From a virus (taxonomy: Duplodnaviria > Heunggongvirae > Uroviricota > Caudoviricetes), in the IMG/VR virus record IMGVR_UViG_2802429222_000003: a DNA stretch of 49,914 nt. The stretch is one strand, 5' to 3'. The translations under genes and the position numbers were made by a program. A model generated the notes under the pieces. That model made no database searches. It worked only from the letters and a program-made list of their open reading frames with translations, and was not told the DNA's origin. Positions within the stretch are counted from its first letter, which is position 1. Every line of letters begins with the position of its first letter. This document shows positions 3,118-45,063 of this stretch, one piece after another.

Positions 3118-3867
3118 TCAGTCAATTGTTTTGTTTATTCCATCTGTGACGCCGATTATTTTCTCAAAATAATGAGATGGCGTGACACCATAATAATCTT
3201 TAAATGCACATATGAAATATGAAGTACTGTTATAGCCACATTTCTGGGCTACGACATTGATAGAATAAGAGTTTGAAGTTATGAGTTTTTTTGCATACCT
3301 CATCCTAGTATCTCTCAATATTTCAGTAAATGACGTTCCTTCATCCCTTAATCTTTTTTTTATTAAACTTTCACTCGTATAAATCAATTCCGCAATATCT
3401 TTTAAATGCCATTGCCGCTCAATATTAAAACTGATTATTCCAGTAATTTTACAGGTAAATGTATTTATATTTGTTAGTATAAATGAATTTACACTTTCGC
3501 GTTTTTTGAACATGGCAAGTAAGGATATACATAGTCTTTCTTTTAACCAAAGGGAGTGTGAGTCTGCTATTTTAATCCCTTCAAACAGAGAAAAAACAAG
3601 CGATAATGGAGGTTCCTCTTCAGCAATATAGCCATTCTTATCAAGAGTAAATTTGCCAGGCAACTCATTATTCACGTCGATAAAAAAGGATAAACATGTT
3701 TTCTTATCTATATCAACAATTCTTAGTTTAGAGGGGCATACTGGTAACTCTCTTCTAATTTTGTCGCTTACAATAAACAATGAATTTTTTTTGAACGAGA
3801 TAACTCTCCTGTTTATAATTAAATCAAATGATTGACAGATGAAAACTACGGAGCAAACATAATCCAT
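3118..3867 (-). CDS. appY: AraC-family transcriptional activator AppY, 249 aa
   Basis: matches recalled AppY sequence and length; adjacent to ompT as in the K-12 DLP12 region; C-terminal AraC HTH. Confidence 0.9.
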
Positions 3868-4543
3868 CTTGCACCTATCATAAAATTAAAACAAGTTGAT
3901 AGTAGTCAAATAACAACCAATTAAATACACAATCATAATCAGGATGATGTGCATTTATATTTTTATACACAAAATTATAGTTTGCAAATTTTAATAAATT
4001 TCATTTAAGATTAAATTATTATATGTATATTGTTTTTTATTCTAACGTATTTCAAAGTTACATTTTTTCAACGATTACTATGCTTTTTATTAACATAAAC
4101 TCACTACAACGCACCTGAAACCTCTTGCTATATATATGTCAACCGTTTGAATTTAAAATAAAAAGAGTATCATTTTTACTTGCATTTCTTATCAAGTCAC
4201 ATTCAACAACAGTAAAAAAACATTATTAGAACCATTCAATTAACAAAAAACCAACATTCAGCTTGCTTAATTTTTCTTTATTAAACGATATTGAAAATCA
4301 ATTGATAAAATACATCTAAACAACCTTTTGGGGCGCAAAAGCATAACATCAAACAAACAAATAACACACCGAAAAAACTCACAATTAATAACCTATGATA
4401 TACATACTGTTTATTATGGTTGAATAAGCCACTCGATATCTGGTGCTACGGAAGTGTCCACACGGTTTAGCAACACCCGATACTTTTTCCTGGCTTCCAG
4501 CAACGGGGTTTCTTCCTCCGTTGCATATACAGCTCACCTTTTT

Positions 4544-38351: not shown

Positions 38352-38605
38352 GGTGACACCTGCTAACGTATGCTTTTATAAACCTTAGTGGTGGGATATA
38401 ATTTTTGTTTAATTTTTATTTAAAAAGACAATTAAGGTCACATTATCTTGAATATACAACAATAATCGTATTGCAATTTTCTTACGCCATAATCTTGAAA
38501 GCACAAAAGAATACATAAAAAATAAAGACATTAACAAAAAGCATAAAACGAGGCTCATATAAATATAAGAGCCTCCATATTTTAGTCGTTTAGAAACAAA
38601 TTATT

Positions 38606-38938
38606 TTAATGTGGTGTGCTTCGTGACAATAAATTAATAACCAACACACCGGCACAAATCAACATCATGCCTATAATGGCTGGCAGGTCCAGCCGTTGGC
38701 CGAAAAGTCCCCATGACAGTAAGCTAATCAGGACAATACCGACTCCTGACCAGATAGCATAAGCAATCCCTGTAGGAATATAAGCCAGCGTCTGAGCTAA
38801 TAACCAGAATGATGCACAATAACAAATAATTGTACCAACAGATGGCCATAACCGTGTAAAACCTTCTGAAAACTTCATTAAGGTTGTACCAATGACCTCT
38901 GCAAGTATTGCACCACCAAGATAAATATAAGGGTTCAT
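38606..38938 (-). CDS. emrE: small multidrug resistance efflux transporter EmrE (110 aa)
   Basis: from the internal Met the product MNPYIYLGGAILAEVIGTTLMKFSEGF... matches recalled EmrE; track ORF has an 18-codon extension. Confidence 0.9.
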   Translation of the reverse strand: MNPYIYLGGAILAEVIGTTLMKFSEGFTRLWPSVGTIICYCASFWLLAQTLAYIPTGIAYAIWSGVGIVLISLLSWGLFGQRLDLPAIIGMMLICAGVLVINLLSRSTPH

Positions 38939-39005
38939 AGCATATTCTTTCCTGTTCAAACTGGAGAGAATTGTACTACAGTTTGAACTCAACTCACCTG
39001 TTTCA

Positions 39006-41822: not shown

Positions 41823-41927
41823 TTCCTATTGGTATTGAAATGAATGAATAATAGCAATGCGTATTAACCAAAATCAATAGCAAAACGTGTTTTGACCATC
41901 AATACGCAAGCGTATAAATTAAAACTT
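41823..41927. promoter_or_regulatory. immunity-region operator/promoter: dyads ATAGCAATGCGTAT (41851..41864), CAAAACGTGTTTTG (41881..41894), ATACGCAAGCGTAT (41902..41915); candidate divergent promoters
   Basis: plus strand TTGACC (41891..41896) and TATAAA (41912..41917) before the cI ATG; minus strand TTGATT-18-TATTAT toward cro. Confidence 0.55.
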
Positions 41928-42620
41928 ATGAAAAAAGAAACTCTTGCTGATCGCTTAAACCTAGCGATGGAACAATCTGGAATGTCTCAAGGCGCTCTTG
42001 CAAAGGCGTCTGGCGTAGCTCAACCCACTATCTGGAGACTGACAAGCGGCAACGCGCGCGGCTCAACAAAAATTGTTGAAATAGCTAATGCATTGGGTGT
42101 TCGAACAGAGTGGCTTTCATCAGGCATAGGCCCGATGAGAAATGACGGTCAACAATCAGGAAAGCCTGCTGTCAACCACTCCAAATACTTCAAGATTGAC
42201 GTTCTTGATATAGAAGTCAGTGCCGGGCCGGGAGTCATCAACCGTGAGTTTGTAGAAGTTCTACGCTCGGTTGAGTACTCGTTTGACGATGCTCGTCACA
42301 TGTTCGATGGTAGGAAGGCAGAAAATATCCGCATCATTAACGTACGCGGTGACAGCATGTCAGGAACGATTGAACCTGGTGATCTTCTATTCGTTGATAT
42401 CACGGTTAAATCTTTCGACGGTGATGGTATCTATGCGTTTCTGTACGACGACACAGCCCATGTAAAGCGCCTGCAAATGATGAAGGATAAGCTGCTGGTT
42501 ATCTCTGATAACAAAAGCTACTCACCGTGGGACCCGATCGAGAAAGATGAGATGAACCGGGTATTCATATTCGGTAAGGTTATTGGGAGCATGCCGCAGA
42601 CATACAGAAAGCATGGATGA
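41928..42620 (+). CDS. cI: CI-type prophage repressor (HTH + S24 LexA-like peptidase domain, 230 aa)
   Basis: N-terminal HTH (QGALAKASGVAQPTIWRL), C-terminal GDSM and KR motifs; ATG 41928 preferred over TTG 41892. Confidence 0.85.
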   Translation: MKKETLADRLNLAMEQSGMSQGALAKASGVAQPTIWRLTSGNARGSTKIVEIANALGVRTEWLSSGIGPMRNDGQQSGKPAVNHSKYFKIDVLDIEVSAGPGVINREFVEVLRSVEYSFDDARHMFDGRKAENIRIINVRGDSMSGTIEPGDLLFVDITVKSFDGDGIYAFLYDDTAHVKRLQMMKDKLLVISDNKSYSPWDPIEKDEMNRVFIFGKVIGSMPQTYRKHG

Positions 42621-42740
42621 AAATGTAATTCGCGATGGCTTAATTGAGCATGGACTGATAGATAGTTTTTTGAAAGCCCATAAAGGCAATGTTACAGAAT
42701 TTTTTGATACATTACGATAGATTGAGTTGAGGTAATATCC

Positions 42741-43505
42741 GTGATTAGAGTAGGAAGACTGCTTCCTGGCGGAATTGTTATTGAAGAAGGACACCATCGC
42801 CCAATTAAAGGTGCTGCAATTCTTCAGTCTGAGTCTGGAGATGTAGAAGAAGTCATTGTTTTTGCGAAGCAACTTTCAAACAGAGGTATCGCCACCGAAA
42901 TTACTTGTGCTGCACTTGGTAGGTTGCTCTCTCTTCCGATTCCAGAACCAGTATTACTATTTGATAATAACAACCAACCTTTTTTTGGGAGTATTGATAC
43001 CGCTTACCCCAGCTTTACGCAGTTCATCAGCAATTCATCTGATTCTGGAGTTCTTAAGGCACTGGAATCATGGCCTCTATTGCAAAAAGCAGCCTATTTT
43101 GATGAATGGATTGCAATGGATGATCGTCATAATGGAAATTTACTATTTAATGGTGACGACTTTATTCTGATTGATCACGAAACTGCAATCCCTCCTGGAT
43201 TATCTCCAGACCAAACTGGTATAGATTACTATTCAAATCAACTGCTTCAACTTGCAAATGACTTAATAGATCGCAACAATGAAATTGCTATCCAAATGGC
43301 AGCAAATGATGCTCGAGCATGGGCATCATCTTGTAAACAAGATTCTATCGAAAAATTAGATGAAGAGATTTATGCCAGTGTTCACACTAAACCCAAGAAC
43401 CAGATGTTATCATTCCTTTCTGCTAGAATAGAGGTACTTGGTGACATACTATATGAGCAGATAAAACCGAAACAGACACAGATAAATTACAATGCTAAAC
43501 CTTGA
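42741..43505 (+). CDS. protein-kinase-like protein (254 aa), candidate exclusion/abortive-infection kinase
   Basis: GTG start with GAGG ribosome-binding site; motifs VFAK, FDEWIAMDDRHNGNLLF and DDFILIDHE with 18-residue Asp-to-Asp spacing; AT-rich. Confidence 0.6.
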   Translation: MIRVGRLLPGGIVIEEGHHRPIKGAAILQSESGDVEEVIVFAKQLSNRGIATEITCAALGRLLSLPIPEPVLLFDNNNQPFFGSIDTAYPSFTQFISNSSDSGVLKALESWPLLQKAAYFDEWIAMDDRHNGNLLFNGDDFILIDHETAIPPGLSPDQTGIDYYSNQLLQLANDLIDRNNEIAIQMAANDARAWASSCKQDSIEKLDEEIYASVHTKPKNQMLSFLSARIEVLGDILYEQIKPKQTQINYNAKP

Positions 43506-44373
43506 TCAACTCTTGAAATCAGCACCAGCGATGCCAACCTCAACAGGTAGCTGGGCGTCTGTATATCTTGAGCCAATGGTAGGTTCGGGTGAAAGACTGA
43601 CTGTCATAGTCGCTGTGGTAACGTCCAACGGAGATGTTCTCGTAAAGCCAGCAATAAGGAAAGAAGTTATCGAAGCCATGTACGGATTCAGAGCGTCTTC
43701 TTTCAATCGCATGATTGAGGTTATTTCAAACAGCCTTCAATATCACCTTGAAAATAATAAAAATTTTTCCGGATGGGTTCCTCCTATCTCAGGCATTACA
43801 TTGAGCACTCCTCGACAAGCCGTGTCTGCTAGTGTTACAGGTATATTGCGACAGGCGGTTGCTCTATCATCTAGCTTATCCTCGCTTCTAGAAATTGAAA
43901 ATAATCATGTAAAAAAACGCTCTAGTAATTCGAGGGAAAAAGATCGATGGTCAACGCAACTACTCGATGCTGTCATAAATAAAGATAACAGAAGAAATAT
44001 ATTCTTCAATCGACAATTTAGTTTTAGCGATGGGCATCGACCTGCAAAGATATTTTATCTGAGCGACCATGCGGCCATCAACACTGGAAAATTACTTCCG
44101 CATAACTTAACCGAACAAGTAAAAGATGGAAAGGCAAAAATCTCTGATTTATCAATGATAAAAAAACATGGCGATATATTCCCTCGCGATACTCATAAAC
44201 TTATAATCTATAAACCTGAGGATGATAACCCTGCTTATACTGATAAAAACATTGCATCCATTAAGAGTGCTTTCTTAGCACTTCAAGATCTTGCTTATAC
44301 TTACGATATATCTATTACAGCTGTAAACTCTGTAGAACAAGCTGCAAGTATTATTTTAAACACAGCAGCCTAA
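43492..44373 (+). CDS. hypothetical partner protein of the kinase-like gene (293 aa)
   Basis: overlaps upstream gene by 14 nt; followed by a strong terminator; no recognisable domain. Confidence 0.55.
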   Translation: MLNLDQLLKSAPAMPTSTGSWASVYLEPMVGSGERLTVIVAVVTSNGDVLVKPAIRKEVIEAMYGFRASSFNRMIEVISNSLQYHLENNKNFSGWVPPISGITLSTPRQAVSASVTGILRQAVALSSSLSSLLEIENNHVKKRSSNSREKDRWSTQLLDAVINKDNRRNIFFNRQFSFSDGHRPAKIFYLSDHAAINTGKLLPHNLTEQVKDGKAKISDLSMIKKHGDIFPRDTHKLIIYKPEDDNPAYTDKNIASIKSAFLALQDLAYTYDISITAVNSVEQAASIILNTAA

Positions 44374-44386
44374 TGCTCACAACTAA

Positions 44387-44412
44387 CCCGGCCACCGTGC
44401 CGGGTTTTTTTT
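44387..44412 (+). terminator. intrinsic terminator ending the cI-linked operon
   Basis: CCCGGCCACCGTGCCGGG hairpin followed by TTTTTTTT. Confidence 0.85.
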
Positions 44413-44540
44413 GCCTCCCCTCATCACACACCGTTCAAAAAACCACCACAACCTCGCTTCAGTTATCGCTATGCGATGCAAGTCACAAAATAAATTCTTT
44501 TTGCTATCAAACATTTGATATCAAAACACATTAATTAATA

Positions 44541-44579
44541 GCAATAAGTATTGATGTCACCAATAGCAATAGCTATTAT
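44541..44579 (+). promoter_or_regulatory. candidate pL promoter with operator-like ATAGCAAT repeats
   Basis: TTGATG (44551..44556), 17-nt spacer, TATTAT (44574..44579); flanking ATAGCAAT-type half-sites like those in the cI-cro region. Confidence 0.6.
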
Positions 44580-44685
44580 TACCATATCGCAACAACACAA
44601 CGATACGGCAACCACCTGATTCACTGTTGCGATGACCGCTTAGATCCGCAGCTTGAATTTCAGCAGGCTCCGGGGAGTGCGAGGG

Positions 44686-45063
44686 GTGAAGCGGACGCGT
44701 GAACGTCGGTGTGACCAGCTGAAATCAACTCAACACTTTATACCTCAGTCGCTTCAACGAGGCGGCTTAGTTATGACAACCGGCGGCCATCCACCGCCTG
44801 AATACGCGCAGAAGTCTCTATATGTTCAGCAGCCCAGCTTACGGGCAGGAGTTTTTATGGTTCATCAACATTACGGAACGCAGACCGTTAATCGCGGTGC
44901 GGTCATGCCAGGCATGCTGGTCAAACACAAAGATGGTACCTGGACTGCATCAGCTAATTTACGCGGACGGCTTTATCTGCATCGCGGCATCGAGCGCACT
45001 TATACCCGTGATTTGCTCGTGGAAGTTTTTCTCGACGGACGCGGTAACGGCCTCAATCACTAA
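44686..45063 (+). CDS. first pL-operon ORF with arginine-rich N-terminus (candidate N-like antiterminator); alternative start ATG 44770
   Basis: GTG 44686 with GGGGAG 8 nt upstream; N-terminus (M)KRTRERR; ATG 44770 has a GAGG site. Confidence 0.4.

Follow-up and report, generated by a model that had tools for sequence, protein, structure and literature searches.

In the stretch of phage DNA analysed here (the window, 49,914 nucleotides; IMG/VR record IMGVR_UViG_2802429222_000003), two overlapping genes, referred to below as A and B, lie between the cI repressor gene and a strong terminator within the OR-OL immunity region of an E. coli prophage. Judged by its sequence, its modelled fold and its catalytic residues, A is a minimal HipA-family (HipA_2) Ser/Thr-type kinase, and profile comparison links it, as a distant homologue, to DS-6A, which is the kinase of the validated HipAD/DS-6 system. 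The reading we lean towards is a lysogen-expressed abortive-infection module in which A is a kinase toxin of the HipA type and B its partner; to go by its relatives and its genomic context, the module probably makes lysogens resist other phages. Anti-phage systems based on HipA kinases were reportedly validated only in 2025-26, and the locus would represent a second, widespread branch of HipA-kinase defence.

Organisation and expression of the locus

The features of the immunity region, in the order in which they occur along the window, are the following.

41877 to 41848, minus strand: PR-like promoter (consensus scan)
41850-41865 and 41876-41891, between cro and cI: two OR-type operators, copies of AATAGCAANNNNTNTT (motif search)
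41892..41920, plus strand: putative PRM-like promoter, TTGACC-17-TAAATT (consensus scan)
41928..42620, plus strand: cI-type repressor, HTH_3 + Peptidase_S24 (Pfam S24 E = 1.5e-18, HTH_3 E = 1.5e-6; RefSeq WP_000712399.1)
42613..42720, plus strand: 35-aa ORF (ATGGATGA) overlapping the cI stop and spanning the gap to A (read from the sequence)
42741..43505, plus strand: gene A, 254 aa, GTG start, GAGG Shine-Dalgarno site 9 nt upstream
43492..44373, plus strand: gene B, 293 aa
44385..44412, plus strand: intrinsic terminator that closes the cI-A-B unit
44537-44552 and 44562-44577: two OL-type operators, copies of AATAGCAANNNNTNTT, overlapping the PL-like promoter (motif search)
44551-44579, plus strand: PL-like promoter for kil-gam-bet-exo, which lie downstream of it

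The position and GTG start of A, the lengths of both gene products, the GAGG site, the gap of 120 nt between the cI stop at 42620 and the start of A, and the 14-nt overlap of A with B are as the first-pass annotation had described them, and four E. coli genomes in RefSeq carry the same two coding sequences, each entered as 'hypothetical protein'. The pair had also rightly been called richer in AT than its neighbours, its GC content being 37-42% against 50-55% in the flanks. The cI frame is open from a TTG at 41892, and RefSeq places the start at the ATG at 41928. The 35-aa ORF in the gap was considered as a third component and rejected, as it is not conserved at other loci; the corresponding gap holds an unrelated 39-aa ORF in the Klebsiella loci and a DUF3024 gene in the Morganella loci, and the ORF probably lies outside the module.

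The operator motif AATAGCAANNNNTNTT occurs four times in the window (chance expectation 0.05), twice at OR and twice at OL, and these operators flank the cI-A-B unit on both sides. A single terminator follows B; the claim of a strong terminator ahead of a pL-like promoter is borne out by an 8-bp stem with six GC pairs (44385-44406) followed by a T run, with a fold z of -3.1. A consensus scan of the cI-A gap matched no internal promoter for A and B, a result that is still compatible with a weak one of the lambda pLIT kind. Judging by the lack of consensus promoter and terminator signals, A and B appear to be co-transcribed with cI. Only 7 nt separate the -10 element of the PRM-like promoter from the cI ATG, and the transcript of cI, A and B therefore probably has no leader.

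Gene A encodes a predicted HipA-family kinase

The initial reading of A as a kinase is upheld by a profile match, a modelled fold and invariant catalytic residues. The match to the Pfam profile HipA_2 (PF20613) covers residues 39-181 and scores 29.7 bits (E = 4.7e-7), just above the cut-off of 27, and the same profile is precomputed on most of the 67 clusters homologous to A, some of which are named 'HipA family kinase'; Pfam returned no Pkinase match. The AF2 model shows a confident bilobal kinase fold of the HipA/CtkA/PI3-4K type (pLDDT 81.7, pTM 0.82), for which Foldseek retrieved from the PDB, all at probability 1.00, CtkA (2e-6), the bacterial Ser/Thr kinases 7wcf and 7vkc, VPS34, HipA (3tpt) and HipT (8ezs), with 3dnt also among the matches. 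Searches of solved structures by sequence yielded only marginal matches to Bud32/RIO kinases.

The kinase-like motifs that had drawn attention to A are the most conserved positions of its family: K43 (VFAK), E53, D121/E122, D128-R129...N133 and I144-D145-H146 do not vary among 31 homologues, whose identity goes down to 28%. The ATP-binding Lys and its Glu partner, the catalytic D-x4-N loop and the Mg-binding Asp are all present, the predicted catalytic residues being K43, E53, D128, N133 and D145. A spacing of 18 residues between the two Asp positions, as given at first pass, holds if counted from D127; from D128 to D145 it is 17 residues.

HipAD is the DS-6 system of E. coli (DS-6A, WP_000389051.1, and DS-6B, WP_000210934.1), equivalent to the PADLOC candidate PDC-M66 and to the HipA/DUF3037 pair in the Retron-Sda1 operon; it was reportedly first described by Brenes and Laub in 2025. 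Comparison of the A family with DS-6A by hhalign gave a probability of 97.9 (E = 4.6e-13, 163 columns) and aligned D128 of A with D139 of DS-6A. The D139A mutation of DS-6A abolishes DS-6 defence (PMC13092281), and in the Retron-Sda1 HipA/DUF3037 pair deletion of the kinase abolishes defence while deletion of the partner is toxic (PMC12548924). The search with PADLOC, proposed at first pass as a check, gave a divided result, with A matching PDC-M66A (E = 1.9e-6) and B having no match. A second PADLOC match of A, to NsnC (Menshen), was judged to be noise (15.5 bits, E = 0.0026, partial coverage).

Gene B encodes a two-domain partner

B, in which no motif had been recognised at first pass, has no Pfam or PADLOC match at E <= 1 and none in NCBIfam. 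HTH, HipS, HIRAN and resolvase domains were looked for in the Pfam scan and none was found in B, and solved structures searched by sequence gave no match for either B or DS-6B. The family is nevertheless large, comprising 698 clusters at 50% identity across Gammaproteobacteria and their phages. B consists of an N-terminal domain (residues 1-127) with the conserved hairpin Y-x-E-P-x3-S-G-E-R, a disordered linker (128-149) and a C-terminal domain (150-293) with a restriction-endonuclease/ERCC1-like alpha/beta fold, as in the PD-(D/E)xK nuclease superfamily. In BFVD, B matches a DUF1828 protein, which recalls the DUF1829 assignment of DS-6B.

At the sequence level, membership of B among the DUF3037/PDC-M66B proteins was rejected after hmmscan, BLASTP, hhalign and a decoy-controlled HMM search had all been non-significant. 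DUF3037/DUF1829 was found by hmmscan in 0 of 51 diverse B-family members, BLASTP against the DUF3037 partner was blank, hhalign, run with small and large alignments, gave P = 0.068-0.078, and HMM scores lay below those of shuffled decoys; as a positive control, DS-6B matches DUF3037 at 7.6e-24 and PDC-M66B at 3.8e-16. The non-significant hhalign alignment is colinear over 235 columns, and P28-x3-S32-x-E34, nearly invariant in B, falls together with P14-x3-T18-x-E20, which is invariant in DUF3037. In domain-split hhalign runs with reversed and shuffled controls, the C-terminal domains alone scored 17.6 against a maximum of 15.2 in 20 column shuffles, a weak signal (P = 0.019), and the score of the N-terminal domains was not above shuffles.

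We tentatively entertain the view that B belongs to an independent, previously undescribed sensor-regulator family, coupled throughout to a HipA_2 kinase clade of its own, and is not a diverged DUF3037 protein. Its C-terminal domain, ERCC1/restriction-endonuclease-like yet non-catalytic, would then read a phage nucleic-acid structure or protein and its hairpin would dock in the kinase active site, where S32, the equivalent of T18 in DUF3037, could serve as a pseudosubstrate or phospho-acceptor. If this is true, HipA-type defence kinases would have acquired two-domain partners of different kinds on two or more occasions, with the conserved Ser/Thr hairpin as a common switch. The shared Ser/Thr hairpin motif provides a testable handle on the restraint of such kinases.

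It is unlikely that the roles are instead reversed, with B as a nuclease effector of restriction-endonuclease fold and A as the regulator or sensor of B, for instance through phosphorylation of B or of a phage protein. Column conservation over 175 sequences revealed no conserved catalytic D...(D/E)-x-K triad on the core strands of the C-terminal domain; the residues that are conserved there are W153, F172, N197, K214, K216, D219, L220, E236 and P242, with K214/K216/D219 sitting in helix 206-225.

Conservation of the pair and its genomic slots

A and B were always found together. The kinase precedes its partner in all 13 distinct loci examined, down to 25% identity, and in all but one of them (12 of 13) the two genes overlap, stop codon to start codon, by 4-14 nt. 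The identities of A and B co-vary with r = 0.974, a value that was reached in 0 of 5000 Mantel permutations. The commonest setting of the pair is the prophage cargo slot just downstream of cI: it lies directly downstream of a cI-like repressor in seven independent lineages, found in E. coli (with two different cI genes), Klebsiella, Morganella, Pseudomonas, a metagenomic phage and Alteromonas phage P24. Other sites are moron slots among tail genes or at prophage ends, including the tail operons of virulent-looking phages, and an integrase/patatin island. Against phage genomes, megablast found no match to the locus; the pair was recovered only by tblastn, in two distant phages.

Of 5426 E. coli genomes, 718 have the same cI/cro and only 8 the A/B module. 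In sister E. coli prophages the cI slot carries SIR2/PDC-S25, PDC-M11A+B, a Panacea toxin-antitoxin pair, DUF7946/7947 or unknown pairs, and the cI-kil slot of this prophage family is a rich hot-spot for finding more defence cargo. DefensePredictor gives the cluster of B a log-odds of 6.87 against a strict cut-off of 4 and predicts it to be a novel defence gene, at an overall validation rate of 45% for the method; since genomic context is among its features, this score is not independent of the argument from location. The RefSeq accessions of A and B occur in the DefensePredictor supplementary table, as prediction only, and a full-text search, within whose reach the original HipAD description by Brenes and Laub (2025) did not fall, returned no paper on them.

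Proposed function and alternatives

The earlier suggestion of a defence or exclusion role in the lysogen is supported because A is homologous to the kinase of a validated system, because the pair is strictly conserved and occupies a rexAB-equivalent slot in seven lineages, because the equivalent slot in sister prophages holds other defence or toxin-antitoxin cargo, and because the cluster of B is predicted by machine learning to be defensive; it is from these lines together that we infer the role.

In the abortive-infection reading, A and B would be made in the lysogen from the far end of the cI (PRM) transcript, and the overlapping stop and start codons would keep B in fixed proportion to A. 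A would be an active minimal Ser/Thr-type kinase, toxic if its relatives and context are a guide, and B would bind it and keep it inactive. Infection by a second phage would lift this restraint, either through a phage trigger sensed by B or through the loss of B, and the ERCC1/restriction-endonuclease-like C-terminal domain of B may bind nucleic acid. Freed A would phosphorylate a factor that the host needs to live, or possibly one from the phage, growth would halt and the infection would abort. HipA and HipT phosphorylate aminoacyl-tRNA synthetases. The role of B as an antitoxin that neutralises A is drawn by analogy, since B has no detectable sequence relationship to the kinase-neutralising DUF3037 partner. 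Because it occupies the classical rexAB position in lambdoid prophages from several genera, the module is a natural system for studying kinase-toxin superinfection immunity.

An alternative is a plain toxin-antitoxin module for addiction or persistence, stabilising the prophage or modulating host dormancy in the manner of hipBA, with no anti-phage role. Tight two-gene co-inheritance and translational coupling are typical of toxin-antitoxin pairs, and the founding member of the HipA family is a persistence toxin (PMC8262856); however, the nearest characterised relatives of the pair, DS-6/HipAD and Retron-Sda1 HipA/DUF3037, are anti-phage, the slot is common to SIR2, PDC-M11 and Panacea cargo, and addiction makes little sense for a pair that is also found in tail operons of virulent-looking phages. 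We consider this explanation improbable in its pure form, and it overlaps the defence reading, since many toxin-antitoxin systems do both.

Least probable of the alternatives is a phosphorylation system akin to the Pf KKP kinase module, with which the prophage would steer its own choice between lysis and lysogeny, or the physiology of its host, instead of gaining immunity: although the genes lie inside the immunity region beside cI, and prophage kinase modules that control induction exist (PMC11341870), the occurrence of the pair with unrelated repressors and at non-immunity sites (tail operons, prophage ends, the integrase/patatin island), together with its absence from 710 of the 718 cI/cro-matched E. 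coli prophages, argues that it cannot belong to the switch.

Comparison with known systems

Lambda RexA/RexB, whose role is established, have the same position and expression logic as A and B, being an accessory pair between cI and OL/PL that ends at a terminator; A and B, too, are presumably expressed from PRM in the lysogen. The proposed rexAB equivalence holds for this position, from cI to OL/PL, but does not extend to homology: the Pfam matches of A and B at E <= 1 include no Rex families, and A and B were dismissed as RexAB homologues, there being no sequence relationship. RexAB consist of a sensor and a membrane ion channel, whereas A and B are a kinase and a soluble two-domain protein.

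The stk gene in the immunity region of Stx phage 933W likewise encodes a kinase and lies between cI and a PM terminator downstream, and its possible identity with A had initially been raised. Comparison of the immunity regions disposes of it, as neither Stk nor its neighbour L0083 is similar to A or B. Stk is a 348-aa Hanks-type protein with a eukaryotic-type kinase fold, unlike A, to which it gave a BLASTP E of 0.04 over 22 aa and an hhalign probability of 0.2, and L0083 has no relationship to B.

E. coli HipBA and HipBST share their kinase superfamily with A, and their structures (3tpt, 3dnt, 8ezs) are among those retrieved with the A model. Unlike HipA (~440 aa), A is without the ~100-aa N-subdomain, the Foldseek TM-scores normalised to the target being only ~0.32, and unlike hipBA the locus has no HTH HipB antitoxin and the reverse order, with the kinase first; a classical hipBA type II toxin-antitoxin identity was rejected, as both the upstream HTH antitoxin and a full-length HipA are missing. 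The hipIN, hipJS and hipMP systems likewise combine a short core kinase lacking HipA N-subdomain 1 with a putative antitoxin downstream; their kinases measure 279-321 aa against 254 aa for A, and no HipS, HIRAN or resolvase domain was detected in B. The HipN antitoxin has two domains, one kinase-neutralising and one a DNA-binding HIRAN domain, and a role for it as a sensor of phage DNA has been proposed (Gerdes et al. 2021, PMC8262856).

Compared with DS-6, A lies on a divergent branch, scoring 29.7 bits against HipA_2 where DS-6A scores 258 and matching PDC-M66A at 1.9e-6 where DS-6A does so at 6e-15, and the resemblance of B to DS-6B is limited to the P-x3-[S/T]-x-E hairpin motif and the weak signal in the C-terminal domain. 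Current defence annotators miss the locus because its kinase is recognisable but its partner family has no Pfam match, and it would go uncalled by PADLOC or DefenseFinder. What the locus has in common with DS-6 is a short (~250 aa) HipA_2 kinase as the first gene, an equivalent catalytic Asp, a two-part second protein of ~275-293 aa, overlapping genes and carriage on mobile elements.

Organisation of the locus and its immunity-region setting

Genes A, encoding a HipA-type kinase, and B, encoding its partner, follow the cI-type repressor gene of the prophage, whose stop codon lies 120 nt before the start of A. This gap, the GTG start, the GAGG site, the 14-nt overlap and the ORF positions are exactly those of the first-pass annotation, as checked against the sequence and the RefSeq coding sequences. 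RefSeq labels both genes "hypothetical protein" in four complete genomes, E. coli NADC1036 and three others, which are 99.9-100% identical across the region.

Features of the cI-A-B region (window coordinates)
41850 and 41876: two copies of an operator-like motif, 16 nt, in the cro-cI interval
42613-42720, + strand: 35-aa ORF (MDENVIRDGLIEHGLIDSFLKAHKGNVTEFFDTLR) with its start within the cI stop (ATGGATGA), leaving 20 nt to A
42741-43505, + strand: gene A, GTG start, 254 aa, GAGG nine bases upstream
43492-44373, + strand: gene B, 293 aa, 14-nt overlap with A
44385-44406, + strand: stem of the intrinsic terminator after B, followed by a T run (8-bp stem, 6 GC pairs, fold z-score -3.1)
44537 and 44562: two copies of the operator-like motif, 16 nt, just past the terminator and overlapping a PL-like promoter

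The operator-like motif has four copies in the entire 49.9-kb window, against a chance expectation of 0.05, and since these are confined to both flanks, cI-A-B occupies the space between the operators OR and OL. This is the position of the rexAB exclusion genes in phage lambda, as had been proposed along with the strong terminator, the pL-like promoter behind it and the AT-richness of the pair, which has 37-42% GC vs 50-55% in the flanks. Promoter-like consensus is absent from the cI-A gap, and A-B would be co-transcribed with cI. Only 7 nt separate the end of the PRM-like promoter's -10 element from the annotated cI ATG, which implies a leaderless cI mRNA (window 41892-41928); the cI mRNA of lambda is likewise leaderless. 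Read from a TTG at 41892, inside the -35 hexamer of the same promoter, the cI frame is open as well.

The 35-aa ORF spans the entire cI-A gap and has no RefSeq annotation; its counterpart elsewhere is an unrelated 39-aa hydrophobic ORF (Klebsiella) or a DUF3024 gene (Morganella). In two Klebsiella loci (L019/L023, positions 3700-4000), about 33 nt of the cI 3' end (..GCCGAAGACGTACAGGAAGCATGGGTAG) are repeated just 5' of the kinase gene, and the repeats bracket the 39-aa ORF, which looks like a cargo-insertion scar from recombination at the cI end. On the other side, no N-like antiterminator is annotated in the OL/PL-kil interval (window 44600-45063), which holds just unannotated ORFs (e.g., 44653-45063), and this is where Morganella relatives have a gene of the N_peptide family. 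Between ren and the nin region, on the minus strand, is a second AT-rich island (30-40% GC; window ~38494-38988; 3874-4368 in comparison locus L001). Its gene, named 'type VI secretion system-associated protein TagO' by RefSeq, is probably another moron, and in NADC1036 the neighbouring ren is a pseudogene with a frameshift.

Gene A encodes a minimal HipA-type kinase

Protein A scores barely above threshold against the Pfam family HipA_2 ("HipA-like kinase"; 29.7 bits, gathering score 27) and matches the PADLOC candidate PDC-M66A at 1.9e-6. A search of 5.8 billion proteins returned 67 homologous clusters from Enterobacterales, Pseudomonas, Shewanella and Grimontia, most of which carry PF20613 and some of which are named "HipA family kinase". 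The kinase-like motifs picked out by eye coincide with the positions that are invariant in an alignment of 31 sequences with identities down to 28%, namely K43 (VFAK), E53, D121/E122, D128-R129-x3-N133 and I144-D145-H146. A kinase fold, the check proposed for this reading, was predicted confidently by AlphaFold from the same alignment (pLDDT 81.7, pTM 0.82), and the top PDB matches of the model (H. pylori CtkA, the bacterial Ser/Thr kinases 7wcf/7vkc, VPS34, HipA and HipT) are all HipA/PI3-4K-type kinases. With its 254 residues, A is reduced to the minimal kinase core and lacks the N-subdomain of HipA.

Gene B represents a large partner family

The partner, in which no motif had been recognised, indeed has zero matches in Pfam, NCBIfam and PADLOC and matches a single PHROG, with function unassigned there. 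When 1.84 billion cluster representatives were searched with a profile, 698 relatives were detected at E <= 1e-3, 500 of them at E <= 1e-10; among the 150 listed, nearly all are full-length, at about 280-300 aa. As 51 diverse members scanned individually against Pfam likewise gave scattered noise only, B belongs to a large family without a Pfam match. The model (pLDDT 78) predicts two domains with a disordered linker between them (residues 128-149). Across 175 sequences, a conserved D...(D/E)xK triad is absent and conservation peaks in an N-terminal beta-hairpin, Y25-x-E27-P28-x3-S32-G33-E34-R35, with E34 present in 174. The C-terminal domain is therefore read as a scaffold for binding that is probably non-catalytic, in the manner of ERCC1 or FAAP24, and the hairpin as the functional core of B. 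Residue 236 (window 44197-44199), in the 'ELI' strand, is Glu in 131/175 family members and Lys in the window's B, as it is in the four identical E. coli copies.

A and B form an obligate pair carried as cargo

A B-family gene lies directly 3' of the kinase gene in all 13 distinct contexts examined, down to 25-30% identity, with a stop-start overlap of 4-14 nt in 12 of them. These contexts come from the following sources.

Sources of the A-B contexts
E. coli, two different prophages
Hafnia
Pseudomonas syringae group
Enterobacter-like
Grimontia
Metagenomic phages
Klebsiella
Morganella
Alteromonas phage P24
Acinetobacter phage qsb1

Across loci, the pairwise identities of A correlate with those of B at r = 0.974, a value reached in 0/5000 Mantel permutations; A and B are inherited together and diverge as one unit.

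The pair recurs in the rexAB slot of lambdoid prophages. It lies directly 3' of an HTH/S24 repressor gene and 5' of early-left recombination genes in E. coli, behind two unrelated cI genes, and likewise in Klebsiella (several cI variants), Morganella, Pseudomonas, one metagenomic phage and Alteromonas phage P24. Its other locations are classical sites for morons or cargo. In the Acinetobacter phage and in Enterobacter-like prophages it separates the tape-measure gene from tail-tube or chaperone genes; in Hafnia it is found at a prophage end beside tail fibres or integrase, and in Grimontia it adjoins a patatin gene on an integrase island.

The cI/cro genes of the window (96-97.5% nt identity) are found in 718 of 5426 complete E. 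coli genomes, and homology among these prophages ends at the cI stop codon. Only 8 E. coli genomes carry the module, which is missing from 710 of the 718 same-cI/cro prophages. Five sister prophages (L031-L035), sampled from cI to kil (equivalent to window 42621-44500), hold five different inserts.

Cargo of the cI-kil slot in five sister prophages
SIR2 protein (PADLOC PDC-S25, ThsA-like)
PDC-M11A+B (E = 1e-133; ASCH domain in the B protein)
DUF7946/7947 protein
Pair of 340 and 168 aa, no assigned identity
Panacea-domain toxin-antitoxin pair

The cI-kil slot is a defence and toxin-antitoxin hot-spot, and with 718 genomes sharing this cI/cro it could be mined systematically for cargo.

Proposed mode of action

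The most likely reading, which we regard as probable, is that A and B make up a kinase-toxin/partner module which, expressed in the lysogen, aborts infection by other phages. A would be the toxic effector, phosphorylating either a factor essential to the host or one from the phage, while B, made in a fixed ratio to A via translational coupling, would restrain and neutralise it; the phage signal would likely be read at B, by the ERCC1-like domain or the hairpin. Gene anatomy, kinase fold, catalytic residues, strict pairing and location in cargo slots are direct results here, while co-transcription with cI, the toxicity of A, its neutralisation, defence against phages and the kinase target are deduced. 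That the genes instead serve purely for addiction or persistence, as a toxin-antitoxin pair, seems unlikely. It is similarly improbable that B is a nuclease effector under kinase regulation, as its catalytic triad is missing and the genetics of sibling systems disfavour B as effector. A role as lysogeny or physiology regulator is very doubtful, because the module is found next to unrelated repressors as well as at sites outside immunity regions, and nearly all prophages with the same cI/cro lack it. More would be at stake if B were an independent sensor, or if the Ser/Thr hairpin shared with known partners were a kinase switch.

Relationship to known systems

PDC-M66 consists of a HipA-like kinase and a DUF3037 protein. 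Such a pair from the Retron-Sda1 operon defends by itself against phage Bas51; deletion of the kinase abolishes defence, while deletion of the DUF3037 gene is toxic (PMC12548924). An E. coli example, DS-6, renamed HipAD, was validated by DefensePredictor, which credits its first discovery to Brenes & Laub 2025 (PMC13092281). It comprises DS-6A, a 249-aa kinase whose D139A mutant loses defence, and DS-6B, a 275-aa DUF3037 (+DUF1829-like) protein (PMC13092281). In a comparison with the sequences from that study, the A family shows clear homology to DS-6A (hhalign probability 97.9, E = 4.6e-13), D139 aligning with D128 of A. However, DS-6A reaches 258 bits against HipA_2 vs 29.7 for A, which places A on a divergent branch.

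B could not be assigned by sequence as a DUF3037 partner, since its comparisons with DS-6B were non-significant (no BLASTP match, hhalign P = 0.07-0.08, HMM-versus-sequence scores under shuffled decoys); in a positive control, DS-6B matched DUF3037 and PDC-M66B strongly. Two hints of very remote kinship may nevertheless be seen. The hhalign alignment, with the same overall P, is colinear across 235 columns and superposes the near-invariant P28/S32/E34 of B on the invariant P14/T18/E20 of DUF3037, and the C-terminal domains, taken by themselves, outscore each of the 20 column shuffles (P = 0.019), whereas the N-terminal domains alone do not exceed theirs. The DefensePredictor E. coli table contains a 293-aa "predicted novel defense gene", cluster WP_000933177.1, with a log-odds of 6.87 vs a strict cut-off of 4, as predicted status only (PMC13092281); the window's B has this same accession in RefSeq.

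Downstream of other short Hip kinases lie putative antitoxins with two domains, e.g., in HipN (HipS-like + HIRAN), which Gerdes et al. proposed to sense phage DNA (PMC8262856); their architecture is analogous to that of A-B but the domains differ. The suggested likeness to Stk from the immunity region of Stx phage 933W did not withstand comparison of the two regions, as Stk is a 348-aa Hanks-type kinase without similarity to the HipA-type A. Apart from this point, the finding is real and the first-pass inference was essentially right. A-B is not categorically new, because two-gene HipA-kinase defence is an already known kind; new are its divergent kinase branch and its large partner family, which is uncharacterised and escapes current defence annotators.
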